Of a stretch of DNA of 64,000 nt, positions 28,932 to 48,637 are shown one piece after another (within the stretch, counting starts at the first letter, position 1; every line of letters begins with the position of its first letter). The translations under genes were made by a program, and so were the position numbers. This DNA comes from a virus: positions 32,001 through 96,000 of IMG/VR virus record IMGVR_UViG_3300047476_001426; one strand, written 5' to 3'. Below the pieces are notes generated by a model. The model searched no databases, was not told the origin of the DNA, and was given only the letters and a program-made list of their open reading frames with translations.

Positions 28932-31219
28932 GACGAAGAGGATAAATTAGCATCTCCTTTTACAATATACTTAATATTGAAAATTATTGAGGTATTGGTA
29001 AAATTAATTGTGAAATTAGATACTGGTTGCACATTGTTGAAATTCGATAAAGTTATAGAATTAAAATCTGAAGATGTGTACCAATACACTTCGTTAAATG
29101 GTATCATTCCACTAATATTTGCACCCAATAGATAAGCATCAGAAATATTAATTTTACCGTCTTTATTTATATCACCCGCTTTCATTTTAGGACCATTGTT
29201 AAGAACTAAACCTGGTTGAAGTTGGGTTGGAGTATTTTCGTTTTGTGACTCATTAAAAACTTCATTAAAGTCACTCGATGTCAAAGATGGTGTGTACGTT
29301 GGTACTATCTTATAAGTTGAGTTGTATTTGGTTGGGTTAAATGTAAATGAACCTGTTGCACCAACTATTGCGGTCTGTAATAGAGTCTCGACCCCATTTT
29401 CAACCAAATAAAATTTTAATTCAGGTCTTACAGATAAACCTGAAGGGATAGTAACTGTTCCTGATATTGTTTCTGTTATTATTGTAACAGAACCTGAAGA
29501 ACTAAATGCAAATCCACACGTCCCACTCTGTAATTGTGCTCTGAATAGGGTTTTTACGGATATATTTGAATAAGACTGTGATGTGGTTGTATTGACAATA
29601 TCGGTCCACGTAACACCATCATTTGTCGACCTTTGCCATTTAACAATACTACCACTATAACCACTTAAAGTTACTGTTCCTGAGTTTGTTGTTGTGGTAT
29701 GAATCGATGATGATACCGAACCACCAACAGGAGGTGTACCTGATGTCACGGTAATCGTTTTTGAGTCTGAATTAACCGCACTACCACAGTTTGGTGTTTG
29801 TACTTGAACTCGATAATAATAAGTTCCAGCAGAGTTTAACGTTTCTATTAAACTTGTAGTTGTATTAGAAATATCAGTCCAATTTACATTGTCTGTTGAA
29901 CGTTGCCATTTATTGACATTACCTTGTTGACCCGATAATGTTAGTTCTACTTGACCACCGGCACATATTGAATTATTAACTGCAAATATTGTACCCGATT
30001 TTGTTGGTTTAACTGACAAGAACACACTTGATGTTGGTAAACTTGAGCAAGTTGTTGGACTGGTTGAATTTACAATTGCTCTATAGTATGTTGTTTTAGT
30101 TAGATTAGTTAAGGTAATAGTTGATGATGTGCTTGATATTGTTGTACCAGCGGTAAAAAAGTTATCAAATGAAGATTCCCATCTCACAATACTACCTGTA
30201 TATCCATTAAGTGTTAGTGTTGTACTATTACTACCTGAACAAACATTAATATCACCACCACTAATATACCCACTTGATGCCCCACTAATTTCTACGTTTC
30301 TTGTTAATATGGTTGTACTTGTGGTGATGTCACCTGGCATGTCACCATATTCACAAATATATCCGGGTAGAGATGTGTTTGGTAAATCATTCCATTGACC
30401 TAAATTACCTGAATAAAATTGACCGTAATGTTCTCCACCAGCATTATTAGGTTCCCCACCCGCCCATTTTGCATATTGACCTGTAACAGCAGTACTACCA
30501 TTGGAAAATTGAGTTCCCTTCTCAGGTCCTGTAACCCAATGCCACTTTTGTTCAACGGCTGCTTGTGATGCGAACGTAGTGGTACCTTTAGCGGTATTGA
30601 CCACACCCATTTCATCTGAAGCACCAAACCAACCATCTGATGACATTAATTTCCAAATAAAATTATTTTCCGCCTCAGATGACATTGTTGCCAAATAACC
30701 CGCTCTACCAAAATATGAACGATTTTCTGCGGATGTTTTTGAATTTGTCCATGTTGTTGAACCAGAAACATATTCATAAAAATGTTCAGTTAATGGGTTG
30801 TAAAATACAATTCCCGCAACAAATGTTACTCTTCTTTGTAGTGCATAACAGGTAGAGGTTGTTGACCTAAATTCAACTCCTCTTAAAACCGTTTCCCAAT
30901 TTGAAGCTGTTGTTGTTCCATTAAAAACTAACACCCCTGTGGTTGTATTGAATGCGGAAACAGTAATACCAGACGGTAAAGTTGCTGTTGACCTTAATTG
31001 GTCACCACTTACGCCACTTATGTAACTTTGAGATATTTGAACTCTAAACCCATTAATCGTACCATTCGCAGTCAAAGTAAGATTCGGGTCAACCTTTGTC
31101 CAAGTATTAAAACTTGCGGAAAGTGTACCCGTACTCGATGTACCTAAAGAAACTGATGTTGCTTGTGAGTAACCGAGAATCGGTAAAATTAAAAGTAATA
31201 TAAAAATTAAATTTCTCAT
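28925..31219 (-). CDS. Secreted protein: C-type lectin, Ig-like repeats and dockerin-like domain
   Basis: Signal peptide; YLAT..SEAEN, WFGASD, WAGGEPNN, WND, YICEY (CTL); repeated WQRST modules; GDINKDGKINISD dockerin-like loop. Confidence 0.75.
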   Translation of the reverse strand: MRNLIFILLLILPILGYSQATSVSLGTSSTGTLSASFNTWTKVDPNLTLTANGTINGFRVQISQSYISGVSGDQLRSTATLPSGITVSAFNTTTGVLVFNGTTTASNWETVLRGVEFRSTTSTCYALQRRVTFVAGIVFYNPLTEHFYEYVSGSTTWTNSKTSAENRSYFGRAGYLATMSSEAENNFIWKLMSSDGWFGASDEMGVVNTAKGTTTFASQAAVEQKWHWVTGPEKGTQFSNGSTAVTGQYAKWAGGEPNNAGGEHYGQFYSGNLGQWNDLPNTSLPGYICEYGDMPGDITTSTTILTRNVEISGASSGYISGGDINVCSGSNSTTLTLNGYTGSIVRWESSFDNFFTAGTTISSTSSTITLTNLTKTTYYRAIVNSTSPTTCSSLPTSSVFLSVKPTKSGTIFAVNNSICAGGQVELTLSGQQGNVNKWQRSTDNVNWTDISNTTTSLIETLNSAGTYYYRVQVQTPNCGSAVNSDSKTITVTSGTPPVGGSVSSSIHTTTTNSGTVTLSGYSGSIVKWQRSTNDGVTWTDIVNTTTSQSYSNISVKTLFRAQLQSGTCGFAFSSSGSVTIITETISGTVTIPSGLSVRPELKFYLVENGVETLLQTAIVGATGSFTFNPTKYNSTYKIVPTYTPSLTSSDFNEVFNESQNENTPTQLQPGLVLNNGPKMKAGDINKDGKINISDAYLLGANISGMIPFNEVYWYTSSDFNSITLSNFNNVQPVSNFTINFTNTSIIFNIKYIVKGDANLSSSSY

Positions 31220-32976
31220 AAATTTATCTTACTACCAACTAAGAAAAATGATAGAATTGGAAATTCAGGGTTTGTACTCATGTTCGCTTTATAGTTAACA
31301 TTTAACTTAAAACGCTTTGAGATTTGATAGTCAAAACCACTACCAATAAAACCACTCACATATCTATCAGTTATTGATACATTGTCTTTAGATGAATAAA
31401 CTAAGGGTGTTGAAATAACGTATAATTCGGGTGACACAATTAATTTTTTACCAACTTTAAATGGTCTTGTGTAAAAAGCGGTGATAGATGGTGAATAATA
31501 ACCATTCTTTTCTTCCGATATAATCGTTGCTGCTGCACTTACGTTAAAACCCGTAATACCATATTTCCCACCATTTAAAATACCACTATAACCAATAAAC
31601 CCTAAATAATTACCATAAGTGTAAACTCCTGTCAGGTTTATGTTATGAATGAACTTCAACTTTTTTGTTTTATTGTAATGTATTTTAGTATATTTTGTTG
31701 ACACAGCAAACTGTTTGAAATTTAACCAAACCATACCAGTTACACCATAACTTGATAAACCTGTCATTGACGATTTACTTGTTCCAATGTTTACTATTGG
31801 GGTGAAAGTTCTATTCAAATTTTGAGCGGAGGTAACATCAGAAGAAACAATGATAGGGTTAGACCTCGCACTACCCCCACCACCTGATTTACCTTTTCCA
31901 CCACTGTTTGAACCACCAGAACCACCGGCATTATTATCATTGTGAGCATCGTTGTTCATTTGTGTTGTTGCACCAACTTCTTCACCTTGTTGTTGGGTGT
32001 TGTTTTGATTATTATTTCCATTAGAGGTACCCGTTCCACCACTATTTGAGTTTCCTGAACCTCCGCTATTTCCTGTGGTAGTAGAACCTCCAGAACCCCC
32101 GTTATTACCTGAAGTTCCCGAACTTCCCGAACCATTATTTCCTGTGTTTGTTCCGTTGGTTGTTCCCGAACCACCTGTTGTGCTCGAACCATTTGAACCC
32201 CCGTTATTTGATGGAGACCCATTTCCGTTATTAGAACTACCTGTTGACCCTGAACCACCGTTGTTCGAACCAGAATTGTTTGATGGGGTTGACCCATTAG
32301 AGTTACCCGAACCTACAGATGGTTGAGTCGTTGAATTTCCCCCCTGAGTTGAGTTACCTGTACTTGATGACGTTCCTCCATTTGTTGAATTTCCACTTCC
32401 TTGAGTCGAGTTACTTCCTCCATTTGTTGAATTAGTTCCTGAATTCGATTGGGATTGTCCTCCATTTTGAGTTGTACTATTATTCGTAGTATTTGATTGA
32501 GATGAATTACTTCCATTTCCTTGATTATTATTGTTTTTCTTCTTATCAGAATTTTTATTATCCTTACCACCAGCATCACTACTACCCGAAGAACCAGTTT
32601 CTAAACTAGATGATTGTGCTTGACTACTTGACAATATCGAACTCACAACTGATTGAACCGTACTACCAATAATTTGTGCGGTTATTTGGTTTTGAGTTAC
32701 TTGACCCTGTTGTTGTGAACATGGGTTTGTTTGTCTGTATGTGGTATAAACCTGATTTACCCAATTGGAAAATGTTCCATTGGATAAATCGTTCGCGTCA
32801 AAACTACCAACATTATTTAAAAAAATAATCATCGTTTTACCCCCCTGTATTGGTACACTAAATATTGTGACTTCTTTTGTACAAGGGTCTATAAAAGTAT
32901 ACGTTGATACTTGTGCTTTCGATACATTATATACGAAAGTAAGAAAAAATGTTAATATTAATGTCTTAATGTTCAT
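31216..32976 (-). CDS. Secreted protein with G/S/N/T-rich linker and putative C-terminal beta-barrel
   Basis: Signal peptide; about 250-aa low-complexity linker; alternating-hydrophobic strands ending FFLVGSKINL. Confidence 0.6.
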   Translation of the reverse strand: MNIKTLILTFFLTFVYNVSKAQVSTYTFIDPCTKEVTIFSVPIQGGKTMIIFLNNVGSFDANDLSNGTFSNWVNQVYTTYRQTNPCSQQQGQVTQNQITAQIIGSTVQSVVSSILSSSQAQSSSLETGSSGSSDAGGKDNKNSDKKKNNNNQGNGSNSSQSNTTNNSTTQNGGQSQSNSGTNSTNGGSNSTQGSGNSTNGGTSSSTGNSTQGGNSTTQPSVGSGNSNGSTPSNNSGSNNGGSGSTGSSNNGNGSPSNNGGSNGSSTTGGSGTTNGTNTGNNGSGSSGTSGNNGGSGGSTTTGNSGGSGNSNSGGTGTSNGNNNQNNTQQQGEEVGATTQMNNDAHNDNNAGGSGGSNSGGKGKSGGGGSARSNPIIVSSDVTSAQNLNRTFTPIVNIGTSKSSMTGLSSYGVTGMVWLNFKQFAVSTKYTKIHYNKTKKLKFIHNINLTGVYTYGNYLGFIGYSGILNGGKYGITGFNVSAAATIISEEKNGYYSPSITAFYTRPFKVGKKLIVSPELYVISTPLVYSSKDNVSITDRYVSGFIGSGFDYQISKRFKLNVNYKANMSTNPEFPILSFFLVGSKINL

Positions 32977-37786: not shown

Positions 37787-37860
37787 GGTACCGTAGCTCA
37801 GTTGGTAGAGCACCAGACTGAAAATCTGGGTTGTCACTGGTTCAAATCCAGTCGGTACCA
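37787..37860 (+). tRNA. tRNA-Phe(GAA)
   Basis: Full cloverleaf; CCAGA-CTGAAAA-TCTGG. Confidence 0.93.
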
Positions 37861-37962
37861 CATAGTGTTGGCTTCAAGTCCCATTAGGGAAGTACACTTA
37901 AATAAAACATACACGGGGAAAGTGTTGACTGCAGAAACAGCGAGTACCAACGAAGGGGTAAT

Positions 37963-38036
37963 GTCTTCGTAGCTCAGTTGGTTAGAGCACCTCACTTTTA
38001 ATGAGGGAGTCACGCGTTCGAGTCGCGTCGGGGACA
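37963..38036 (+). tRNA. tRNA-Lys(TTT)
   Basis: Full cloverleaf; CCTCA-CTTTTAA-TGAGG. Confidence 0.93.
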
Positions 38037-38178
38037 CAAAGGTTGATTGGGGAATGATTATGTCTATAGTTCGAGAGTGGATACTGACTGACATAATCGG
38101 AGTTTGGAGGTATTCACCGTAGTAATGCCAATCGTAAAAGGAGATGTCCACTGAACCATCTTCTCCTTTCCTTGACTT

Positions 38179-38252
38179 AGTTCCTTAGCTCAGTTGGTTA
38201 GAGCATCTGCCTTACATGCAGAGGGTCGTTGGTTCGAATCCGACAGGGACTA
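38179..38252 (+). tRNA. tRNA-Val(TAC)
   Basis: Full cloverleaf; TCTGC-CTTACAT-GCAGA. Confidence 0.93.
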
Positions 38253-38318
38253 CAATAAACTAAAAATTGCATCAATAAACAAGGTTAGTTTATCGTGGCA
38301 AAAACAAGTTTAATAAAC

Positions 38319-38389
38319 ACGGGTGTGGTGAAAGGGTATCATACCGGTCTCCAAAACCGTTGTTGGGAGTTCGAATCTCTCCACCCGTG
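38319..38389 (+). tRNA. tRNA-Trp(CCA)
   Basis: ACGGGTG/CACCCGT acceptor; CGGT-CTCCAAA-ACCG. Confidence 0.88.
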
Positions 38390-38410
38390 CAAACTTTAAA
38401 AATAAAAACA

Positions 38411-38842
38411 ATGAACAATCAAATAGGAATCGATGCCGCAAAAATAAAATTTGAGGCTGAGAAAATGAAACTAAAAGAAGAAAGGGAACGAAGGATTAAA
38501 GAGTTTTGGGAAAACGGTATACCCAAATTAAATAATCCTGAAGACGTACCAACACTTCCAAGGGTGGATGAAAAAGAATGGAAAGAATACTATGTACCAA
38601 GATTGATTGATGCTGGTGCAATCCCTAAAAAAGATTTAATCCATGGTCAGATTTATATCGGTGAACATAGAAATACAACCATAGCAAGATGGAATCAGGA
38701 AACAAACAAATTCGACCACATGAGATATAAGTTTGGTTGGGCGAAAGATGATTGTAACCATTTTGAAGATGATGATGGATTCGCATTGTTTGTCCCAATT
38801 AGATTAGGAACACAAGAAGAATGGGATGAAAGAATTAAATAA
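38411..38842 (+). CDS. Hypothetical protein in the tRNA array
   Basis: ATG at 38411 after an A-rich leader; 143 aa. Confidence 0.65.
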   Translation: MNNQIGIDAAKIKFEAEKMKLKEERERRIKEFWENGIPKLNNPEDVPTLPRVDEKEWKEYYVPRLIDAGAIPKKDLIHGQIYIGEHRNTTIARWNQETNKFDHMRYKFGWAKDDCNHFEDDDGFALFVPIRLGTQEEWDERIK

Positions 38843-38847
38843 ATGAT

Positions 38848-38921
38848 GCTCTCGTAGTTCAATGGATTAGAACATTTCACTACGGATGAAAGGGTTGGGA
38901 GTTCGAGTCTCTCCGAGAGTA
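38848..38921 (+). tRNA. tRNA-Arg(ACG)
   Basis: TTTCA-CTACGGA-TGAAA; full cloverleaf. Confidence 0.9.
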
Positions 38922-38926
38922 CAATA

Positions 38927-38998
38927 GGGTCAGTTTGGTCATGGAGGCCGGTTAGTCTGCAAAACTAACGGAGTTGGTTCGATTCCAACATTGACCTC
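38927..38998 (+). tRNA. tRNA-Cys(GCA)
   Basis: GTTAGT-CTGCAAA-ACTAAC; T arm GTTGG-TTCGATT-CCAAC; weak D arm. Confidence 0.8.
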
Positions 38999-39053
38999 AA
39001 TATAAGGTCTGAACCTAATAGTGGGGGATTATTAGGTGTGGACCTTATAATAT

Positions 39054-39128
39054 GGTAGATATAGTTCAGTTGGTTAGAACGTCTGATTGTGGTTCAGAAG
39101 GTCGTCGGTTCGAATCCGATTATTTACC
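39054..39128 (+). tRNA. tRNA-His(GTG)
   Basis: TCTGA-TTGTGGT-TCAGA; encoded G-1:C73. Confidence 0.92.
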
Positions 39129-39135
39129 CAAACAT

Positions 39136-39212
39136 TGGAATATAGCTCAATTGGTTAGAGCATTCGTCTGATACGCGAAAGGTTATAGGTTCGATTCCTA
39201 TTATTCCAACCA
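39136..39212 (+). tRNA. tRNA-Ile(GAT)
   Basis: TTCGT-CTGATAC-GCGAA; encoded CCA. Confidence 0.93.
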
Positions 39213-39217
39213 AACAT

Positions 39218-39291
39218 TGCGGGGTGGACTGGAGAGGTTCCAGCTCAGTCTCATAAGCTGAATGACGTGGGTTCGATTCCCACCCCCGCAA
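39218..39291 (+). tRNA. tRNA-Met(CAT), fMet-like body
   Basis: TGCGGGG/CCCCGCA acceptor; TCAGT-CTCATAA-GCTGA (lacks the three G-C pairs of classical initiators). Confidence 0.8.
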
Positions 39292-39460
39292 CTTTTTCAT
39301 TGAACATTTTGAAATATGGAATTTCATGTTTATATTTTAATTGTTCGTTTGTTCTTTGAAATAAAAATATGGATATAACTAGGGTCGAGCCAGATTTTGC
39401 CACGGTTATGTCAAGGGTTGGAAGGACCAGAGCTGGCCGTGACTACTCCAACCCACTATT

Positions 39461-39534
39461 GCCTCCTTAGCTCAGTTGGCCAGAGCGCCTCACTTGTAAT
39501 GAGGATGTCGTTGGTTCGAATCCGACAGGAGGCT
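39461..39534 (+). tRNA. tRNA-Thr(TGT)
   Basis: CCTCA-CTTGTAA-TGAGG. Confidence 0.93.
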
Positions 39535-39631
39535 CTGCAGGGTTTTCGGTGTAAAGGGTGTCAAAACCCACCTGAGCAAAACCTAACATATGTCCACTAT
39601 GTGTTAGGGTAATGTGGATAAAACCGAAATT

Positions 39632-39703
39632 GGTCTCATAGTTAAACGGCTATAATGCAGCCCTGTCACGGCTGAGTTCGGGGTTCGATTCCCCGTGGGA
39701 CCG
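39632..39703 (+). tRNA. tRNA-Asp(GTC)
   Basis: CAGCC-CTGTCAC-GGCTG. Confidence 0.93.
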
Positions 39704-39994
39704 CAATGAGTAAGAGATACTCAGGAAGATTGGCTACATTCTGTAAAAAAGTAGTGGTGGTAAAAAAATCCTCGACCTTAATGAGGTATCGATTTGGATA
39801 AAACGGTAGCAAGACTCTGCACCGCCGACGTATAGAGTTGACAGGTTTTTATGTGGTAAGACACTAATGAAAAAGACCCAATGAAGGAGGACGCTTTTAA
39901 GCAATATGTTCAGAGAGCGTTGGGGGATATGGTTCTCGAAACAGTGAGAGAAACCCGTTAAAATCTACTTATTGTAATCTCAGATAAGGAAATT

Positions 39995-40080
39995 GGAGAG
40001 TTGGCAGAGCTGGTTGAACGCGGCGGTCTTGAAAACCGTTTTACTGAAAGGTAACGGGGGTTCGAATCCCTCACTCTCCG
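39995..40080 (+). tRNA. tRNA-Ser(TGA)
   Basis: GCGGT-CTTGAAA-ACCGT with a long variable arm. Confidence 0.92.
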
Positions 40081-40088
40081 CAAATTAT

Positions 40089-40163
40089 GGCCCTTTCGTC
40101 TATCGGTTAGGACAGGTCCCTTTCACGGACCAGAGACGGGTTCGATTCCCGTAGGGGCTACCA
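40089..40163 (+). tRNA. tRNA-Glu(TTC)
   Basis: GGTCC-CTTTCAC-GGACC; encoded CCA. Confidence 0.92.
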
Positions 40164-40179
40164 AACAAAAAAAACCAAT

Positions 40180-40422
40180 ATGTTAGAGAAAATTTTAGAA
40201 CAATATGAGAGTGAGGAAATCTTAATTGCCGATGGATTTGATAATGCGGTTATAGGTATTGATGAATCCACAATGAGATTAATTTATTCCGTTGAGAAGT
40301 GTATAAACATCCTAATGGAACAAGGAATGGATATGACAGAAGCGGTTGAATACTTTGATTTCAACGTCTCAGGTTCATATGTTGGTGAGAAGACTCCAAT
40401 ATGGTGTGATGATTTATTTTAA
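40180..40422 (+). CDS. Small acidic hypothetical phage protein
   Basis: 80 aa; ADGFDNAVIG...YSVEKC..EAVEYFDFN..GSYVGE.TP pattern common in phages. Confidence 0.7.
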   Translation: MLEKILEQYESEEILIADGFDNAVIGIDESTMRLIYSVEKCINILMEQGMDMTEAVEYFDFNVSGSYVGEKTPIWCDDLF

Positions 40423-40462
40423 AAAAAAATTTAAAATTATTTGTAAATAAAAAAACTTTTCG

Positions 40463-40470
40463 TATCTTTG
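40463..40470 (+). promoter_or_regulatory. Bacteroidota sigma70 -7 element driving tRNA cluster 2
   Basis: TATCTTTG with upstream TTTG (-33 element). Confidence 0.8.
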
Positions 40471-40487
40471 TGATAGTTATTTAAGAA

Positions 40488-40592
40488 ATGATGAACTTGG
40501 TATACATACAACAACCGTTGAACAATCCACTTAGTGGTAATGGGAGAGGTATATATTTATGTGACCCAAGTTCGGAGTTAGTCAAATTATAA
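40488..40592 (+). CDS. Leader peptide 2 (MMNLVYIQQPLNNPLSGNGRGIYLCDPSSELVKL)
   Basis: 34-codon ORF between promoter and terminator; carries antiterminator strand AAGTTCGG. Confidence 0.75.
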   Translation: MMNLVYIQQPLNNPLSGNGRGIYLCDPSSELVKL

Positions 40593-40616
40593 GGATAAGA
40601 TAACCTACTATAGATG

Positions 40617-40649
40617 ACCCGAACTTAAATAAAAAAGTTCGGGTTTTTT
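40617..40649 (+). terminator. Attenuator terminator 2
   Basis: ACCCGAACTT-loop-AAGTTCGGGT followed by TTTTT. Confidence 0.85.
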
Positions 40650-40681
40650 GTTTTTAGAGTTTTTTGTTTTTATATTTGAAG

Positions 40682-40704
40682 TGTTCTTTGACATATTGGT
40701 TTAA
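40682..40704 (+). promoter_or_regulatory. boxA-like antitermination element, copy 2
   Basis: Exact 23-nt repeat of 37761-37783. Confidence 0.6.
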
Positions 40705-40710
40705 GTAGTT

Positions 40711-40795
40711 GCCGAGGTGATGGAATGGTAGACATGAGGGACTTAAAATCCCTTGGACAGTAATGTTCGTGTGGGTTCGACTCCCATCCTCGGTA
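40711..40795 (+). tRNA. tRNA-Leu(TAA)
   Basis: AGGGA-CTTAAAA-TCCCT, long variable arm. Confidence 0.92.
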
Positions 40796-40800
40796 CAAAA

Positions 40801-40999
40801 GAAACTTCCTTACAGAAGGTGATAATGCTTCACTGAAAGGACTACTGACTTCCAAGTGGGTCGCAACCACAATCGGAAGGTACGACACGGCTCAGTAGAC
40901 TCTGTAACGGACCCTGCTCTATGGTGCACACATAACAGGTGATGGGGAACAAACCATCGGTAAAATCTAAACCCACGGTGAGCGTGGAAGGAATGTTTC
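40801..40999 (+). ncRNA. Unclassified multibranch structured RNA
   Basis: End-to-end stem GAAAC.TTCCTT/AAGGAA.GTTTC; internal TTACAGA/TCTGTAA, CTACTGA/TCAGTAG and several hairpins. Confidence 0.55.
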
Positions 41000-41009
41000 T
41001 TTTTTTAAT

Positions 41010-41083
41010 GTCTCCGTAGCTCAGCTGGATAGAGCAACAGCCTTCTAAGCTGTGGGTCATTGGTTCGAATCCAATCGGGGATA
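41010..41083 (+). tRNA. tRNA-Arg(TCT)
   Basis: ACAGC-CTTCTAA-GCTGT. Confidence 0.93.
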
Positions 41084-41085
41084 CT

Positions 41086-41225
41086 AAGATAGTGGTCACT
41101 CTCACAATGAAAGTCGACAAAGTAGTTGTGAGGTTCATAGTGTTCAGCACCCTCGGCCAGTGCACTGATAAAACTCAGAAGAAGCCGTTAAGATTGGAGC
41201 GAGACGGGTACTCCATCACTATCTT
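41086..41225 (+). ncRNA. Unclassified structured RNA
   Basis: Closing stem AAGATAGTG/CACTATCTT; internal CTCACAA/TTGTGAG and TGGAG/CTCCA hairpins. Confidence 0.5.
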
Positions 41226-41230
41226 TTTTT

Positions 41231-41305
41231 CGGGATGTAGCGTAGTCCGGTTATCGCGCATGGTTTGGGACCATGAGGTCGCAGGTTCGAATCCTGCTAT
41301 CCCGA
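41231..41305 (+). tRNA. tRNA-Pro(TGG)
   Basis: CATGG-TTTGGGA-CCATG. Confidence 0.93.
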
Positions 41306-41355
41306 CAAAGTCCGAGAGTAATTAACTCGGTACCTGAGAGGTTCGAAACTCTCGA

Positions 41356-41449
41356 TTGATTATGGTGTAATGGCGCACAGCAGAACGGAGTACGGGCATC
41401 GGCCTCGAAAGGGGACGCAGGATTAAGGTTCGAATCCTTATTAATCAGC
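41356..41449 (+). ncRNA. tRNA-like RNA with anticodon arm replaced
   Basis: Acceptor TTGATTA/TAATCAG, D arm GTGT/GCAC, T arm TAAGG-TTCGAAT-CCTTA; about 45-nt non-canonical middle. Confidence 0.6.
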
Positions 41450-41651
41450 AAGCCGTCTTTTTTCATACTCGCACCGATGAGGGGGACTGTTGAGACGTTA
41501 AAGTAACAGTGTAAAGCAATCGGGGGTTTATCCAAGTTACCCACAAACTGGGGTCGTTTTCCTTACCGAAGGAGTTTCCCGACCAATAAACTGAAACTCA
41601 AACGATAGAAAAAAGTAGGGACACATGGGGAAGCTTTAACCCGTCCCGAAA

Positions 41652-41750
41652 TAGTCAGGTGAGTTGGTACTCACGGAGGGTCGTTAAATGGAAAGATACC
41701 ACATCGACGAGGTGGTAAATGCCGAACAGGTTCGAGTCCTGTCCTGACTA
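41652..41750 (+). ncRNA. tRNA-like RNA, TAGTCAGG class, copy 1
   Basis: TAGTCAGG/CCTGACTA stem, GTGAG/CTCAC arm, ACAGG-TTCGAGT-CCTGT; no 7-nt anticodon loop. Confidence 0.6.
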
Positions 41751-41823
41751 CTAAGTAGAGAGAACCGTGAGTTTGCGGATGGAAACAACCATAAAACGAG
41801 CATACGTCATACTCTACTTAACA

Positions 41824-41918
41824 TAGTCAGGTTTGGTACAAGGTCGGTTCGAGTCCGATGGAAGGTCATGGATGTCGGGTAGCTCCCTGTAGAGAGGTTC
41901 GATTCCTCTCCTGACTAC
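41824..41918 (+). ncRNA. tRNA-like RNA, TAGTCAGG class, copy 2 (two T arms)
   Basis: Same terminal stem; TCGG-TTCGAGT-CCGA and AGAGG-TTCGATT-CCTCT. Confidence 0.6.
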
Positions 41919-41995
41919 GATACGGTGTTGACCTGTCCGCGACCGAAATGTATACAAAACAGTGGAGGGTGACAAATAGGGAGAGACCTGTACAT

Positions 41996-42136
41996 GATTA
42001 AGTGGCGAAATTGGTTTACGCGCTGGTCAGTACCCAAAAGAGTGTTGAATGGGGAAAACTGGTGGACATACTACAGACACGAGTAGTAGGAGATTATGTC
42101 TTTAAATCCGTACAGGTTCGAATCCTGTCTTAATCT
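41996..42136 (+). ncRNA. tRNA-like RNA with a long insertion in place of the anticodon arm
   Basis: GATTAAG/CTTAATC acceptor, Leu-type D arm GCGAAATTGGTTTACGC, ACAGG-TTCGAAT-CCTGT. Confidence 0.6.
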
Positions 42137-42263
42137 CGAATGTGGTTCGATTCCACTCGTTAACTGAGGTTTTGGAAAGTAGTCCAATGGAGGTACACAC
42201 TCCACTTAGAAATAAGGTAGAATGATGGAGAACAGTTTGGAGGTGTGGGAAGACACACAAAAT

Positions 42264-42335
42264 TCCTCGATAGCTCAGCGGTAGAGCAAACGGCTGTTAA
42301 CCGTTAGGTCCCAAGTTCGAATCTTGGTCGGGGAG
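42264..42335 (+). tRNA. tRNA-Asn(GTT)
   Basis: AACGG-CTGTTAA-CCGTT. Confidence 0.93.
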
Positions 42336-42411
42336 CAAAAAAATCGTTGATGGAAACATCGAAGGTGTACAATACTAGTAACACCGTAGGTTTGGCGATG
42401 TCCTACAATAG

Positions 42412-42492
42412 GCCTTGGTGGTGGAATGGTAGACACGCTAGTCTTAGGAACTAGTGGCGAAAGTCGTGTCGGTTCGAGTCCGACCTGAGGTA
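42412..42492 (+). tRNA. tRNA-Leu(TAG)
   Basis: CTAGT-CTTAGGA-ACTAG. Confidence 0.92.
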
Positions 42493-42497
42493 CAAAT

Positions 42498-42601
42498 TCA
42501 TTCTTAGTGTTATGAGGTAAAACACTTTGACTCTCACATCGCCTGGTTAGTACTGACCCGAATGTGAGACGAGTAAGTTGGTTCGAATCCAACAGAATGG
42601 A
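42498..42601 (+). ncRNA. tRNA-like RNA with an extended hairpin replacing the anticodon arm
   Basis: TCATTCT/AGAATGG acceptor, GTGTT/AACAC D arm, TCTCACAT/ATGTGAGA hairpin, GTTGG-TTCGAAT-CCAAC. Confidence 0.65.
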
Positions 42602-42663
42602 CAACCCGTCGAAAGCTCATGTTGGTCCGAGTGAGATGGAAACGCGGATATCGGACCCGTTAT

Positions 42664-42745
42664 TGGAAGGTGGGTGAGTGGTTAAAACCGGCAGACTGTA
42701 AATCTGCTCCCATTGGGTACGGGGGTTCGAATCCCTCCCTTCCAA
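42664..42745 (+). tRNA. tRNA-Tyr(GTA)
   Basis: GCAGA-CTGTAAA-TCTGC, variable arm. Confidence 0.92.
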
Positions 42746-42758
42746 CAAAAATATCATT

Positions 42759-43310
42759 ATGAAAAAAAATAAAATAATTTCAGAGATGTTATCAAACATC
42801 ACACCTGAAATGAAAGAAAAATGGAAACAAGAGAGAATTGAACGTAAAAACAAATTAACACCCGAATATCAACTCGGATATTATGTTGGTTTGGAAATTG
42901 TTCACAGATATCTACCAACTCTTTCTACTGATATGATACAATCTCGCACCGTGATTGAAGTTTCTGAAGAAGATACTTTAGAAAATGAAAGATTGGATAC
43001 CGAATGGTATACAACAACAAAACACGGTGGAGAATGGAATGGTGTTGATGAAAACGGCAATAAAGAGAAATGGGATTTATACCATCAACACAATAAAATG
43101 TTGGGAAGGAAATACCTACCAAATCCATTGGAGTGTTACATGAGTTTGTTAAATGTTCAAAACATGGATGAATTTAAAAAAGGTTTAAGGTTCGCATTGT
43201 GGGATTGTGATATGTGTTCATACAATATTGAACCTGAAAACATAAAAATTTACGATGATGAACAAGCCATGTTTACTATTATCGAATTTCAATTAGATTC
43301 AGTGGTGTAG
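42759..43310 (+). CDS. Hypothetical protein in the tRNA array
   Basis: 183-aa ORF; its TAG stop overlaps the 5' end of tRNA-Ile(TAT). Confidence 0.65.
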   Translation: MKKNKIISEMLSNITPEMKEKWKQERIERKNKLTPEYQLGYYVGLEIVHRYLPTLSTDMIQSRTVIEVSEEDTLENERLDTEWYTTTKHGGEWNGVDENGNKEKWDLYHQHNKMLGRKYLPNPLECYMSLLNVQNMDEFKKGLRFALWDCDMCSYNIEPENIKIYDDEQAMFTIIEFQLDSVV

Positions 43311-43377
43311 CTCAATTGGTGAGAGCAGGACTCTTATACAGTCAAGGTTATGGGTTCAAATCCCGTCATCACTACCA
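43301..43377 (+). tRNA. tRNA-Ile(TAT)
   Basis: GACT-CTTATAC-AGTC anticodon arm; encoded CCA. Confidence 0.85.
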
Positions 43378-43428
43378 ATTATCGGTTAAATAACCGATAA
43401 AATAAATTATCGTCGATTTGAACGATAT

Positions 43429-43502
43429 GGTCCCTTAGCTCAGTTGGTTAGAGCAACTGACTCATAATCAGTAGGCCCACGGTTCAAGCCCGTGAGGGAC
43501 CA
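43429..43502 (+). tRNA. tRNA-Ile2 or Met (CAT)
   Basis: ACTGA-CTCATAA-TCAGT; body resembles bacterial lysidine-type Ile2. Confidence 0.85.
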
Positions 43503-43527
43503 CAGAGATATTTATATATAAAAAACT

Positions 43528-43980
43528 ATGGGAATAGAATTAAAAAAGAAAAAACAACTTATCGAAAGATTAAATAAAAGGTTGTTATCGGAAGCCGAAA
43601 TGGAATGTCCAAAACCAACTCAAGATTTGGAATTAAACACCAAAAACAGAGATAAATCAATAAAGGCAGATTATATTAAATATGGTCCACTTAATATTGA
43701 TGAACCGGGAGATTATTGGGAAATGGTTGCATCCGATTGGGATACAACTGTTGAGGCAGCAAAAAAATCACTATGTGGTAATTGTGTTGCTTTTGATATT
43801 TCACCAAGAATGGATGAATGTATGCCGGGTTCTGTTTCTGATGACAGCGGTAGATTAGGTTACTGTTGGATGCATCATTTTAAATGTCATTCAGCAAGAA
43901 CATGTAAAACATGGGCTAAAGGTGGACCTATTACCGAAGACACGGTTTCATACGAATGGCAAGAAAAAAATAAAGAATAA
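43528..43980 (+). CDS. Cys-rich hypothetical phage protein
   Basis: 150 aa; CGNCVAF, GYCWMHHFKCHSARTC; preceded by TATTTATA. Confidence 0.7.
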   Translation: MGIELKKKKQLIERLNKRLLSEAEMECPKPTQDLELNTKNRDKSIKADYIKYGPLNIDEPGDYWEMVASDWDTTVEAAKKSLCGNCVAFDISPRMDECMPGSVSDDSGRLGYCWMHHFKCHSARTCKTWAKGGPITEDTVSYEWQEKNKE

Positions 43981-44043
43981 ATGTAGTCGTACCCTTAACT
44001 CCAAAACTCACAACTGAGTCTCTGTTATGGGAAGGCTACTCCC

Positions 44044-44116
44044 GCGGAAATAGCTCAGTTGGTAGAGCATCACCTTGCCAAGGTGAGGGTCGCGAGTTCG
44101 AGTCTCGTTTTCTGCT
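44044..44116 (+). tRNA. tRNA-Gly(GCC)
   Basis: TCACC-TTGCCAA-GGTGA. Confidence 0.93.
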
Positions 44117-44185
44117 CTAAGTAAACCTTAAAAAGGGCCCTTCCGTTGGTACGACAACGGCTTGTTGAGCCCGGGTTTACTTTTT

Positions 44186-44257
44186 GCGAATATCGTATAA
44201 TGGTCATTACTTCAGACTTCCAATCTGAAGATGTCAGTTCGATTCTGACTATTCGCT
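44186..44257 (+). tRNA. tRNA-Gly(TCC)
   Basis: TCAGA-CTTCCAA-TCTGA. Confidence 0.92.
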
Positions 44258-44310
44258 CAATCATTATAGTGGTCACTAAATCGGGTTAGTGAAAATCTAT
44301 TTGATATTAT

Positions 44311-44381
44311 TGTCCTGTGGTGTAACGGCAGCACATCTGGTTTTGGTCCAGAGAATTGAGGTTCGAATCCTTGCGGGACAA
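44311..44381 (+). tRNA. tRNA-Gln(TTG)
   Basis: TCTGG-TTTTGGT-CCAGA. Confidence 0.92.
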
Positions 44382-44439
44382 CAAAATTTTTAAATTATGA
44401 AAAAAGAAAGAGACTTCTATTAGGTAACACTAATAGAAT

Positions 44440-44709
44440 ATGTCAAAACACAGAAACAGAGCTAAGCTCAAAAACGCAGAATGTGGTAGGGATTACCACC
44501 TAATTTCTTTAAACGAATGGTATCCCCTTTATTGGGATGAGGGGTACAACTTCTATCCACGATGGAGAAGAGGTTACAAAAATCCCAACAAGACAATTCC
44601 AATCTTTAAAGTACGTGAGTACAGAACTTGGAAGTACAACAGAAAAAACCAATATGTTGAGAGGAAAGTTACCCAAGTTGGTGAAGGGGACGGTTTGCTA
44701 AACCGTTAG
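44440..44709 (+). CDS. Small basic hypothetical protein (3' end overlaps tRNA-Ser)
   Basis: Arg/Lys/Trp-rich ORF ending in YRTWKYNRKNQY-type motif common in phages. Confidence 0.5.
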   Translation: MSKHRNRAKLKNAECGRDYHLISLNEWYPLYWDEGYNFYPRWRRGYKNPNKTIPIFKVREYRTWKYNRKNQYVERKVTQVGEGDGLLNR

Positions 44710-44750
44710 GTCGAGTAATCGGCGCGAGGGTTCGAGCCCCTCACTTTCCG
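44663..44750 (+). tRNA. tRNA-Ser(GCT)
   Basis: ACGGT-TTGCTAA-ACCGT, long variable arm. Confidence 0.92.
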
Positions 44751-44781
44751 CAAAATACTTATAAGTAGAATAATATGTAAT

Positions 44782-45243
44782 ATGACAAAATTTAGAACAT
44801 TGTACGGAACACCCATAACTGACGTTATTGGTTACATCAAAGATTATTTGGTTGATAAAACTGATGTTGAGATATTAATTGGTTCGGATTCACAATCATT
44901 TAGTAATTCAAAAACAGTTTACGGGGTGGTTATTGCTCTTTACACAACAGGTAAAGGTGCACACGTACTATGTACTAAAGATATCACACCATTTGAAAAA
45001 GACACATCAAGTAGATTAATGACCGAAGTTTGGAAAGCTGTTGAAGTTGCCGAACATTTGAGAAATAATGGTTTACCAAAAGCCACATGGATTGATATAG
45101 ATTTAAATCCCGACCCAAGATATAAATCAAACAAAGTTTTGAGACAAGCAGTTGGTTTGGTTGAAGGTATGGGATACAAGGTAAGATACAAACACGCAGG
45201 TGCTATGGTGACTTACAGTGCAAACCATTTGGTAAGAATTTAA
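44782..45243 (+). CDS. YkuK-like RNase H-fold protein
   Basis: ILIGSDSQ, RLMTEV, WIDIDLN..SN..GLVEGMGY pattern. Confidence 0.7.
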   Translation: MTKFRTLYGTPITDVIGYIKDYLVDKTDVEILIGSDSQSFSNSKTVYGVVIALYTTGKGAHVLCTKDITPFEKDTSSRLMTEVWKAVEVAEHLRNNGLPKATWIDIDLNPDPRYKSNKVLRQAVGLVEGMGYKVRYKHAGAMVTYSANHLVRI

Positions 45244-45310
45244 AAAAAAGATAAGAGGGCTTGTTTTTTTAAAAAAGTCCTTTTATCTTTGTAATGTAAT
45301 ATTTATAGTC

Positions 45311-45652
45311 ATGAGAAAAAACTAGATTAACAGACTTGTAGTCGTAACCCGTAAAGACTTAAAACCCGGGTACCAAATTGCACAATCGGGACATGCAATC
45401 TCTCAGTTCATTTTAGAACACCCCGAATTGTCGAAACGATGGAACAACAGTTATCTGATTTCATTATCCATCGATTCAGAAGAAAAATTACAACAATTAC
45501 TTTTTAGGTTAGAAGATTCAGGAATACCTGTATCTCATTTCATTGAACCCGATATCGGGAATCAATTAACATCTATTTGCTTTCTCGAAACCGAGGAAAC
45601 AAAAAGATTCACATCATCATTGCCTTTATCCTTAAAGGAATATAATAAATAA
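45311..45652 (+). CDS. Pth2-like peptidyl-tRNA hydrolase with in-frame TAG at codon 5
   Basis: MRKN*INRLVVVTRKDLKPGYQIAQSGHA...EPDIGNQLTSI; VVVTRKDL..G..IAQ..HA is the Pth2 N-terminal catalytic motif. Confidence 0.75.
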
Positions 45653-45672
45653 ACAATTTAATCTTAAAAATT

Positions 45673-45927
45673 ATGAAGTAGATTAACAAAAAATGTGAAA
45701 TTATTTTTCACTTCAACAAGAAACACTTGGAAAATCCGACGATTCCAATGTGGGTTGTGAAATGTCGGGGCGACACTTATTATGTTCATCATGTTGATGT
45801 CTCACCGGGTGTGGGATTCTCAACAAAAGAAACTCCCGATAACCCTCATACCAAAGGGAGTATAAAATTCAAAGCAAATTTGGAAATTGAGGAAAACAAT
45901 AACATAATAACAGCTAAAATTTTTTAA
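45673..45927 (+). CDS. Hypothetical protein with in-frame TAG at codon 3
   Basis: MK*INKKCEIIFHFNKKHLENPTIPMWVVK...; A-rich leader before the ATG; frame continuous with ORF 45727-45927. Confidence 0.65.
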
Positions 45928-45929
45928 AA

Positions 45930-46268
45930 ATGAAAAATACAAAACACAACCCAACAATGATGATTAAATCATCTTTCTCGAACAAGATTCATAATCTTTT
46001 AGGTATCAAACACAAACCATATTCAAAAGAGTGGTTTGAAGGTATGAAACAAAGAAGAGAATTGACTAATGAAGAAAAGTCTAAACTTTTTGATGAAATT
46101 ATGAAGGTGTATGTTGAAACATCCGACGAATTGGTAAACTATCGTAAAGATAGGAGATTAAAAAAATGGGTCAACAAAAAACGTTTAGAAAGAGGATATG
46201 TCCCAAAGAAAAAAACAAAAAAAGAAGATTATGAAAAAAATCTTCAAAATGATTTGGAGATATCTTAA
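45930..46268 (+). CDS. Basic hypothetical protein
   Basis: 112-aa ORF coupled to the previous gene. Confidence 0.55.
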   Translation: MKNTKHNPTMMIKSSFSNKIHNLLGIKHKPYSKEWFEGMKQRRELTNEEKSKLFDEIMKVYVETSDELVNYRKDRRLKKWVNKKRLERGYVPKKKTKKEDYEKNLQNDLEIS

Positions 46269-46385
46269 TTAATATCTACTTTTGAATTGTGATTGAAAAG
46301 TGACAGTGACAAATAGACCAAGTGGGGCACACGTAAAATTGTATCAGTCGAAAGTCGAGGTGATAGACCACCATCAATCACAAAC

Positions 46386-46457
46386 GGTCTCGTGGTGTAG
46401 CGGTAACATTACGGTCTCTAAAACCGATAGTCACGGGTTCAAATCCCGTCGGGACCA
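46386..46457 (+). tRNA. Amber suppressor tRNA (anticodon CTA)
   Basis: GGTCTCG/CGGGACC acceptor; CGGT-CTCTAAA-ACCG anticodon arm (CTA at 46418-46420); ACGGG-TTCAAAT-CCCGT. Confidence 0.88.
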
Positions 46458-46564
46458 CAACAAAAAAAAATATTTTTAAAAAAAATTACAAAAATACTTG
46501 TTTTTTAAAAAAAGTTTTGTATCTTTGTACCACAACAATAAATAATACATTTAATACGACATTT

Positions 46565-48637
46565 ATGACAACAAGAAATTTAGTTGCATTTCAAAAGAAT
46601 TTGGTGTGTTCACCAAACGACGGTCAAGATAACAGAATCGCTGTAGCAACCGTACAATCCCACCTAATGCAATGGGGTTACATGTTAGACGAAGACGCTT
46701 TCTTCGCATTAGCCAAATCAGATTTATCGTTTATTCAAAACTTCAATGATGAAGTGTTGAATCATTTGAAAAATGTAATGGGAGGTAAACGTAATTACCA
46801 ACCTTTATATAAAAACTTCCCACAAGAAGTGATGGTTATGTCCGACTTCGAATTGTACATGAATGCAATCATTCATTATTGGAGTAACGGTCAATGGGAA
46901 CCATCTACCCATACTTACGAAAAAGAAATCAAGTTTGAGAAAATCAAATACAACTTGATTAAGTATGGTACTTCGGAAAGATTCTCAAAAATCTTCACTG
47001 ACTTAGTGTCAATAAACACATCGTTAACTCCTCAAGACCTTGAGATTGTTAAATGGTTTGTTGAGAGCGGTGAAACATTAGTCTTCCCTGACACAATTCC
47101 ATTCAAAGAGAATTTGTGTACATTGGCGGCAATGGGAATCTCGGGATTACCAGTTAAGACTTCAACCGATGTGTTAAGAATCGCCGTTCATCTTTCAGGT
47201 GGTGATATTAGTTTACCAAAAGTTCCTCAAAAGGAAATTAGGGCAAGTGTATGGACCACCCAAAGGATTACGAATCCTGAAAGAGAAAAGTTTAAATTCA
47301 AGAAATTCTCTCGTAAAGAGAGAAAATACATCTTGGGTTTACTGGAGAACACAAACTGTGACCCACGTGAAATGGTTTTAAGAGACCAACGTTGGGTACG
47401 TTTAGGTGAAATATTACACCCGGGTGAATATAAAAACCAATTCCCTAAGTCTTTCGAGGCCTTCAACAAAATCCGAAACGAGAAAGTTAAATCTTGGTTC
47501 GCACTTGTTAACGAAGGTTTCAATAAAGGATTAGAGAATGGTTTGAGAGTTTTGTCTCAAAGACCTGGTGAGTTCTCTCGTAGAATGGATTGGTTGGTTC
47601 GTACATATCCAAAAGATATTGAACTGATTATGAAGTTCTTCGGAGAAGCGGTAAAAGGTACATCAAACAAAGTATTGTTTGAAGTTTACACTCACTTTGA
47701 AAATCGTACTGAACCTATGGATAATAGGTCTATTATGATAAAAGGGGCGAGAAAACGTACCACATTACCATCACTACCAGCAATCCCTAAAGAGATTGTG
47801 GAAACCATCCACTCTAAATTATTCGAAACACTTAGAGATAAGTTTTCGGTAATGGAATCTTTAGGTAACTGTTGGATTGATGAGGAATTGAAAAAAATTC
47901 CTTTACCAACCAACATGAGAAGTATGAACTTCTCAACTAAACCAACAATCAGAGGTCAAAGAGTTCCACTCGATAACCCTGATGCAAAAGTTATCAGACC
48001 GTTTGTTCATTGGATGGATAAACGTGGTAGCGAAGACTTGGATTTAAGTGTTACGTTTGTTGGTGAAAAGGTGTCAGAAGTACTATCTTTCAGTAACTTG
48101 AGAGTTGGTAAATCTTGTCACTCAGGGGATGTGAGACATAGACAGGGTCCTTGTGCCGAGTACATCGACATTGATATTCAAGATGCATTGAAAAGAGGAT
48201 TCAAATATGCAGTCATTGATGTGAGAAACTTCAATGGAGGTACTTTGAGTTCACTTGAAACGTCTTTTGGTATCATGGAACGAGAACACCCTGAATCAAA
48301 CAAAACATGGTTACCTGAAACAATTTCAAATTGTCAATCATTGGAATCAGCGTCGTCAAACACATTGATTTCTATTATTGACCTTGAAACTAAGGAGTAC
48401 ATCATGTTGGATATTGATTCATCAGGTTTCGTTACCGCAAGAGGTGACTTCAAACACACTCTTAAAGTGATTCAACAATACGCTGAATTACCAAAAGTAA
48501 GTGTTTATGACCTTATTCTTCTACACGTAGAAGGTCGAGGAAAACAAGTTACCCTTGATGAAAATGTCGACGTACACTTCAAGTACGAGGACTTCTGTTA
48601 CTCTTATGAGGAAACAGGAAAATTAATGGGTGTGTAA
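46565..48637 (+). CDS. Large alpha-helical protein with C-terminal TerD-like domain (Ro/TROVE-like candidate)
   Basis: ATG at 46565 after a TATCTTTG promoter (46520); EDLDLSV..HSGDV..AEYIDID TerD-type motifs; N-terminal helical region unassigned. Confidence 0.6.
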   Translation: MTTRNLVAFQKNLVCSPNDGQDNRIAVATVQSHLMQWGYMLDEDAFFALAKSDLSFIQNFNDEVLNHLKNVMGGKRNYQPLYKNFPQEVMVMSDFELYMNAIIHYWSNGQWEPSTHTYEKEIKFEKIKYNLIKYGTSERFSKIFTDLVSINTSLTPQDLEIVKWFVESGETLVFPDTIPFKENLCTLAAMGISGLPVKTSTDVLRIAVHLSGGDISLPKVPQKEIRASVWTTQRITNPEREKFKFKKFSRKERKYILGLLENTNCDPREMVLRDQRWVRLGEILHPGEYKNQFPKSFEAFNKIRNEKVKSWFALVNEGFNKGLENGLRVLSQRPGEFSRRMDWLVRTYPKDIELIMKFFGEAVKGTSNKVLFEVYTHFENRTEPMDNRSIMIKGARKRTTLPSLPAIPKEIVETIHSKLFETLRDKFSVMESLGNCWIDEELKKIPLPTNMRSMNFSTKPTIRGQRVPLDNPDAKVIRPFVHWMDKRGSEDLDLSVTFVGEKVSEVLSFSNLRVGKSCHSGDVRHRQGPCAEYIDIDIQDALKRGFKYAVIDVRNFNGGTLSSLETSFGIMEREHPESNKTWLPETISNCQSLESASSNTLISIIDLETKEYIMLDIDSSGFVTARGDFKHTLKVIQQYAELPKVSVYDLILLHVEGRGKQVTLDENVDVHFKYEDFCYSYEETGKLMGV

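Follow-up and report, generated by a model that had tools for sequence, protein, structure and literature searches.

How does a phage express a gene whose fifth codon is a stop? The question is raised by a gene on the plus strand at 45311-45652 of the 64,000-nucleotide stretch that we examined (hereafter the window; positions 32001-96000 of the 136,485-bp linear virus record IMGVR_UViG_3300047476_001426, GC 33%), which encodes a protein with the fold of the peptidyl-tRNA hydrolase Pth2 and carries an in-frame amber codon (TAG) directly behind a four-codon leader. This stretch is contained in freshwater metagenomes of at least nine studies. We propose that the gene is whole and that the phage's own suppressor tRNA, encoded a short distance downstream, probably reads through the stop, which would gate translation. 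Gene starts and open reading frames (ORFs) were judged under translation table 11, and tRNAs were predicted with ARAGORN. The 136-kb record is approximately 41% complete (CheckV), and the counts given below for the genome cover that part.

Results

The amber codon is genuine and conserved

The sequence from 45311 reads ATG AGA AAA AAC TAG ATT AAC AGA, exactly as the initial annotation had given it, and consists of a leader encoding M-R-K-N (45311-45322), the TAG (45323-45325) and an ATT, after which the frame runs on to a TAA at 45650-45652, for 113 codons if the TAG is counted as sense. The two motifs described upstream of the ATG, TATCTTTG at 45284-45291 and TATTTATA at 45300-45307, are both present. 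The sole canonical in-frame start past the TAG is TTG 45428, which sits behind the conserved N-terminal motif of the protein. A gene with a lone in-frame stop would ordinarily be taken for a broken one, and a pseudogene, or a sequencing or assembly error, was therefore considered. Contigs of three DNA runs from three studies (2017, 2024 and 2025) span 45147-45651 and differ from the window there only at 45523, with both in-frame TAGs of the locus free of differences, so that three independent assemblies share the stop. The same TAG is retained in 8 of 8 close relatives in IMG/VR despite changed leader codons, and an in-frame stop is kept in 52 distinct homologues while the codons around it change. 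Apart from the stop the frame is undamaged, and its product is modelled with confidence as a Pth2 fold. A defective or misread gene is exceedingly improbable on these grounds; the TAG is genuine, neither an assembly error nor a private mutation.

We assembled the homologues through a profile search of IMG/VR, which gave 79 loci with 10-kb flanks and, from these, 62 distinct proteins with identities of 36-96% from loci with a GC content of 24-63%. An ATG, 1 to 11 further codons and an in-frame stop precede the conserved core in 52 of the 62, and we refer to this early stop as the gate. The in-frame ATG lies 2-12 codons before the stop in every gated homologue (52/52) and 2-4 codons before it in 45. 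The core that follows reads K/R-L-x-V-x-T-R-x-D-L, and the codons flanking the stop vary. The "Q" found at the gate position of the database proteins is a product of gene calling with TAG as Gln and is thus not independent evidence. A maximum-likelihood tree (57 rows, few columns, midpoint root) was built without the long forms L066, L070 and L071 and without L058, L067 and L089, whose frames are shortened by another in-frame stop. One side of this tree comprises 47 rows that are all gated (support 89/84), and the other side holds mostly ungated forms.

The stop matches the anticodon of a linked suppressor tRNA

The tRNA with anticodon CTA lies at 46386-46458 on the plus strand (73 nt, no encoded CCA), 734 nt past the gene end, close to the 730 nt that had been estimated. 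It is predicted to be without a long variable arm. Its anticodon arm differs from that of the window's tRNA-Trp(CCA) by a single change, C35 to T, and the two D arms are likewise similar; its 3' acceptor strand and discriminator A73 resemble those of the window's tRNA-Gln. Home-made isotype hidden Markov models (566 phage tRNAs; 181 of 244 right in cross-validation) scored Trp at 34.9, Asp at 31.9 and Gln at 29.5, which are too close together to decide the isotype. The residue inserted at the UAG is likely to be Gln or Trp.

Across the homologues, a suppressor tRNA was predicted in 56 of the 62 distinct loci, approximately 0.1-3.8 kb from the Pth2-like gene and on the same strand in every case except the pairing of TGA with tca; in several loci it is the sole tRNA within 20 kb. 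The kind of stop follows the anticodon. A TAG gate occurs with anticodon cta in 42 distinct proteins, a TAA gate with tta in two, and a TGA gate with tca in two that are near-identical and form one lineage. One further protein has a TAG gate beside a tta tRNA and an ATG two codons past that stop; an ochre-type anticodon reads UAG as well, by wobble. Five proteins have a TAG gate and no suppressor in the DNA examined, and the ten ungated proteins lie with a cta tRNA (8), a tta tRNA (1) or no suppressor (1). Mismatched pairs of stop and anticodon were not found among the 62 distinct loci.

The two TAA/tta loci stand on separate branches of a clade starred in our tree (100/96), the remaining members of which are TAG-gated, with a cta tRNA found for 10 of these 11 in the DNA examined. 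Their placement forces at least two changes to TAA/tta on the maximum-likelihood tree, and the tRNAs of both loci are 79-80% identical to a cta tRNA from the same clade. Given this placement and tRNA identity, a switch of the gate went along with one of the anticodon on two or more occasions for TAA and on one for TGA. Such coupled change is, on the sequences compared, the strongest argument for the tRNA decoding the stop.

The genome otherwise appears to use the standard code

A suppressor tRNA(CUA) is also what would be expected if the entire genome used code 15 (TAG as Gln), as in crAss-like and Lak phages, with the TAGs being ordinary sense codons and no gating involved. TAG is rare as a terminator here (4 of 140 ORFs of at least 100 aa), gene callers read the homologues with TAG as Q, and Lak phages carry homologues. 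However, only two genes of the 136-kb record need TAG as sense, the Pth2-like gene and a second gated gene behind it (g2, described below); each has it within the first five codons, and both lie in the tRNA's block. Coverage by ORFs of at least 100 aa rises merely from 0.889 with TAG as a stop to 0.913 with TAG as sense, and TAG remains in use as a terminator of some genes, both here and in the majority of related loci. The position of the stop is moreover fixed across homologues of 36-96% identity, unlike scattered recoded codons. Genome-wide recoding is therefore quite improbable in our estimation. In the related loci, the gain in ORF coverage with TAG as sense, a noisy measure, has a median of 0.05 and exceeds 0.1 in 3 of 37, and most of these loci do not appear to be obviously recoded. 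A search of the 136-kb record for release factor 1 (RF-1, PF00472) and GlnRS/GluRS (PF00749) found neither, which proves nothing given that the record covers approximately 41% of the genome.

Of the five TAG-ending genes that are likely to be real, four carry a TAA or TGA 0-3 codons further on, compared to 29% of other genes that have one within 4 codons (Fisher p = 0.03). Few TAG terminators, most of them backed up, and few in-frame TAGs are as expected if the suppressor is active. The TAG-ending genes with a nearby second stop are at 27047-28075, 42759-43310 and 44440-44709 of the window and at 31200-31880 of the genome.

The gene encodes a Pth2-fold protein

The match of the protein to Pfam PTH2 (PF01981) begins at residue 9 and lies just above threshold (25.8 bits against a cut-off of 23; 25.2 bits in a six-frame search of the genome). 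The Pth2 structure PDB 2zv3 is matched by a profile built from 25 homologues (E = 1.5e-6), and the protein also matches PHROG 1866, a family of unknown function (E = 1.6e-11). The AlphaFold model (pLDDT 92.5) was matched by Foldseek to 2zv3 (TM 0.74), 3erj (0.74), 1q7s (0.73) and 1xty (0.72), each with a probability of 1.00, and the best-chain TM-scores against archaeal Pth2 crystal structures and human Bit1 are 0.70-0.75. Fold and the motif R-x-D-L ... A-Q-x-G-H-A are thus common to the phage protein and to archaeal and eukaryotic Pth2 (PF01981; PDB 2zv3, 1xty, 1wn2, 3erj and 1q7s, the last being Bit1). The A-Q-x-G-H-A motif, the E79-P80-D81 loop and T87 are invariant in 25 homologues. In the sequence alignment alone, D81 is one column off the Asp of Pth2 (D-A-G-x-T loop), and it lies in the aligned loop.

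K18, in the GKGK loop, is the Lys reported to be catalytic in Sulfolobus Pth2. Pth2 proper has this loop with its catalytic Lys, whereas the loop of the phage protein is two residues shorter and Tyr21 aligns to the Lys (HMMER); the position is variable in the family, with Y, N, Q, L, S or A. The initial annotation had described an intact Pth2 catalytic N-terminus, of which the motif, the fold and the intact frame are borne out, but the catalytic Lys is replaced by Tyr. We conclude from the model and the alignments that the protein is of the Pth2 fold and that its role as a peptidyl-tRNA hydrolase is putative.

Gated homologues occur in cultured phages

A blastn search with 44700-47000 against GenBank phages gave zero matches, and tblastn found homologues of the protein in 234 GenBank phage records. 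Tenacibaculum phage pT24 (LC168164.1; L134 1447-2400) reads ATG AAA TAG followed by an open frame of 317 codons, in which the Pth2 motif is fused to a C-terminal extension of approximately 190 residues. The annotated coding sequence, BPT24_235, starts at an internal Met 43 codons past the TAG and thereby loses the Pth2 motif, the gated ATG being 135 nt upstream. A tRNA(cta) lies 2.5 kb upstream of the pT24 gene and is the best-scoring of four tRNA hits. Mycobacterium phage Myrna (NC_011273.1) gp84 reads GTG TAG GTG; just downstream of it, gene 86 (L132 1966-2037) is given by ARAGORN as a tRNA with anticodon CTA and by the record as tRNA-Ser. The homologues in XacN1 and Stenotrophomonas RAS14 are fused, ungated forms.

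Where translation would start, and what weighs against read-through

The codon that follows the stop in the 52 gated lineages is ATT in 27, GTA in 6, ATA in 5, GTT in 4, ACA in 3, CTG in 2 and AAC, AGA, AAA, ACT or GCC in one each, and its variation shows that it is not a fixed start codon. In 46 of the 52 lineages, the stretch from the stop to the third codon past the K/R anchor of the core is free of ATG, GTG and TTG, and in 5 of the other 6 the sole such codon falls within the core itself. Directly behind the stop stands an A in 39 lineages, a G in 11 and a C in 2, so that purines make up 50 of 52 compared to a background of 58% (p = 3e-10). A 3' purine reportedly favours amber suppression, a classical finding of Bossi from 1983, and the purine excess fits this context effect.

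Several observations weigh against read-through by the phage's own tRNA. The stop is followed by ATT in this window and in half of the lineages, and AUU is a known weak start codon. Translation could thus begin at AUU 45326, either directly or by re-initiation after the four-codon mini-ORF, which would then be a regulatory upstream ORF, and the protein would be made independently of the suppressor. The mini-ORF resembles in form the lambda bar minigenes, which give rise to peptidyl-tRNA drop-off and a need for Pth; ATT follows the stop in 27 of the 52 lineages and ATA in 5; a start at I6 would still yield the complete protein, given where the Pfam match begins; and Myrna gp84 is annotated from its second GTG. 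Eighteen of the 52 lineages nevertheless have GTA, GTT, ACA, AAC, AGA, AAA, ACT or GCC at this place, none of which is a known start codon. A start behind the stop also leaves unexplained why the type of stop tracks the anticodon, with two independent switches to TAA/tta and one TGA/tca lineage, and why a suppressor tRNA is linked to the gene at all. We regard such a start as unlikely.

An apparently complete phage also weighs against read-through and speaks for the AUU start: the record of L065 (362 kb, rated 100% complete) has a TAG gate and an ungated g2, a CTA tRNA was not found among its approximately 60 tRNA hits, and a tRNA-Cys(GCA) occupies the cassette position (L065 10593-10664), where other phages have the suppressor. 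Four other gated loci have no suppressor in the DNA examined, most of these being cut short, and ARAGORN gave no CTA tRNA for the entire records from which L065, L022 and L053 come. The approximately 59% of the genome that lies outside our record counts in favour of code 15, and the Tyr in place of the catalytic Lys counts against the function that we would ascribe to the protein. Finally, 9 ungated homologues adjoin a suppressor tRNA as well (8 cta, 1 tta), with the cta tRNAs close behind the gene, beginning approximately 280-570 nt past the start of the conserved core. Linkage therefore does not require the gate, and the tie of the protein to suppressor tRNAs is broader than the gate, which suggests that the Pth2-like protein works with the suppressor tRNA or on its consequences.

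The record behind L053 (348 kb) also contains paired Glu-like tRNA genes that ARAGORN could not type (L127 93-312 and L128 125-336). In each pair, the anticodon loop of one tRNA is enlarged and reads TCTATTCAG, compared to TCTTTTCAG in its neighbour, and this tRNA could be an odd UAG reader.

A second gated gene and the architecture of the block

The second gated gene, g2 (45673-45927, plus strand, 84 codons), is highly conserved and predicted from its model to encode a small all-beta protein. It begins ATG AAG TAG ATT AAC, with the TAG at 45679-45681, and TTG 45727 is its sole in-frame start codon downstream of the TAG. Copies with 52-99% identity to that of the window lie directly behind the Pth2-like gene in many loci. 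Thirteen of 16 relatives' loci checked retain ATG-x-TAG at codon 3, and the other three, distant homologues, have a plain ATG start and an N-terminus of similar length. The model is confident (pLDDT 90.1), and searches for related proteins were uninformative: the best ESM Atlas match scored 0.81, Foldseek against the PDB returned nothing at E <= 0.001, the best VIA-align Z was 3.9, and BFVD gave uncharacterised phage proteins only. The g2 sequence had no match in Pfam or PHROG. Between g2 and the tRNA lies g3 (45930-46268, plus strand), which encodes a Lys-rich protein of 112 aa and is free of in-frame stops; it is kept in this place in many loci and likewise had no Pfam or PHROG match.

A pattern search showed a promoter-like element of 32-33 nt (TTGTTTTTTWAAAAAAG, 5-6 nt, TATCTTTGTA) on the plus strand on either side of these genes. 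Copy 1 (45261-45293) contains the TATCTTTG upstream of the Pth2-like gene, and copy 2 (46498-46529) stands just behind the tRNA, before an ORF at 46517-48637. The two copies, 1237 nt apart, are exactly the occurrences of the pattern in 64 kb, compared to 0 expected. TAnnTTTG is the -7 box of Bacteroidota, and TATCTTTG is a putative box of that type. An RNA library (run X17) contains a relative with approximately 90% identity, in which one contig joins 45246 to 46486 and skips 1239 nt, the entire block. In this run 45276-45723 is not covered by any contig, and transcription cannot be read from contigs. Given that this relative is without the whole block, the 1.2-kb block bracketed by the duplicated element appears to behave as a unit of gain or loss.

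Upstream, the window has 25 ordinary tRNA genes in an array on the plus strand directly before the cassette (37787-44751), which together with the CTA tRNA make 26. An RNase H-like gene (44782-45243; PF04308, E = 2e-16) separates the array's last tRNA from the cassette, a position kept in relatives. The large ORF 46517-48637 matches phrog_33734 (E = 6e-55) and is found behind the cassette and copy 2 in many relatives.

Discussion

Our sequence comparison shows that the gate is conserved, that stop and anticodon match, that gene and tRNA are physically linked and that the protein has the Pth2 fold. Expression by amber read-through, which the initial annotation had put forward, is favoured by the conservation of the gate in 52 of 62 homologues, by the match of stop and anticodon and by the variable codon behind the stop, and it is very probable that the phage reads the stop through with the suppressor tRNA that it encodes. 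The weakness of RF1 and the translational feedback switch that the initial annotation also invoked are speculative. We infer expression and charging of the tRNA, its decoding of the stop and a single transcript for the whole block. Ribosomes would start at ATG 45311 on a short-leader mRNA from the TATCTTTG promoter, make M-R-K-N and arrive at the UAG, where release factor 1 and the phage tRNA(CUA) would compete. If the release factor wins, a four-residue peptide would be released at almost no cost; if the tRNA wins, a residue, probably Gln or Trp, would be inserted and the 113-residue Pth2-fold protein completed. The g2 gene would be gated likewise at codon 3. The tRNA itself closes this 1.2-kb block. 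As a consequence of such gating, both proteins would appear only once the suppressor has been made, processed and charged in the host, and their output would be proportional to suppressor activity. Dozens of distant phages keep this pairing, which argues that the proteins are probably made only when the tRNA overrides the stop.

Phages that use code 15, such as the crAss-like and Lak phages, encode suppressor tRNAs that read TAG as Gln, and their in-frame stops have been proposed to delay expression until the suppressor is available (bioRxiv 10.1101/2021.08.26.457843; PMC9523058). A phage-encoded tRNA(CUA) that decodes in-frame TAG would be shared with the phage described here. In code-15 phages, however, the TAGs are spread across many, mostly late, genes, whereas here the code appears standard and two TAGs lie 2-4 codons past the ATG in the suppressor's own block. 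Neither TAG in many genes nor a gene map broken by the standard code was found in 136 kb, and the position of the gate is conserved across very distant phages, unlike that of code-15 TAGs. Peptidyl-tRNA hydrolase is not mentioned in the preprint on stop codon recoding (10.1101/2021.08.26.457843), and full-text literature searches found no description of a suppressor-gated Pth2-like gene. Judged by its sequence, the locus combines all three features, a Pth2-like gene with an early stop, a linked matching suppressor and an otherwise standard code.

The autoregulation of prfB, the gene for release factor 2, offers another comparison (PMC12421855). An early in-frame UGA in this translation-factor gene senses how efficiently that codon is read, and the stop of the Pth2-like gene is likewise early. 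In prfB, however, a +1 frameshift is involved and the gene's own product is sensed, whereas here the frame is unshifted, a tRNA would be sensed and any feedback of the protein on the tRNA would be hypothetical, so that the arrangement is not that of prfB. The large phages XacN1 (PMC5852040) and phiKp24 (PMC8386662) have many tRNAs and a standard code; no target was found for the CUA suppressors of the former, and the purpose of the suppressor of the latter was left open. Here, in contrast to these suppressors without an identified target, a conserved candidate target adjoins the tRNA.

We considered what the enzyme might do once made. Our guess is that it would hydrolyse peptidyl- or aminoacyl-tRNA arising from suppression, or act on the suppressor itself. 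The block could then be a self-contained homeostat in which the suppressor licenses the Pth2-fold hydrolase and g2, and the hydrolase acts on the suppressor's aminoacyl- or peptidyl-tRNA and thus sets the level of read-through. We consider this extension of the gating reading rather unlikely. If true, it would represent a tRNA-sensed analogue of prfB autoregulation, carried as a mobile unit by phages and some bacteria.

In summary, the block gives a suppressor tRNA a conserved candidate target beside it, where suppressors of phages with a standard code had lacked a known role (PMC5852040, PMC8386662). The arrangement would be a natural design in which a stop right after the start ties protein synthesis to a tRNA and failed read-through costs a tiny peptide. 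It also bears on annotation, given that gene callers truncate such genes, as in pT24 BPT24_235, or switch entire contigs to code 15. With pT24, a lab-grown phage carries both the gate and a tRNA(CUA), which makes it testable whether phages of this family gate a Pth2-fold protein through a suppressor tRNA of their own.
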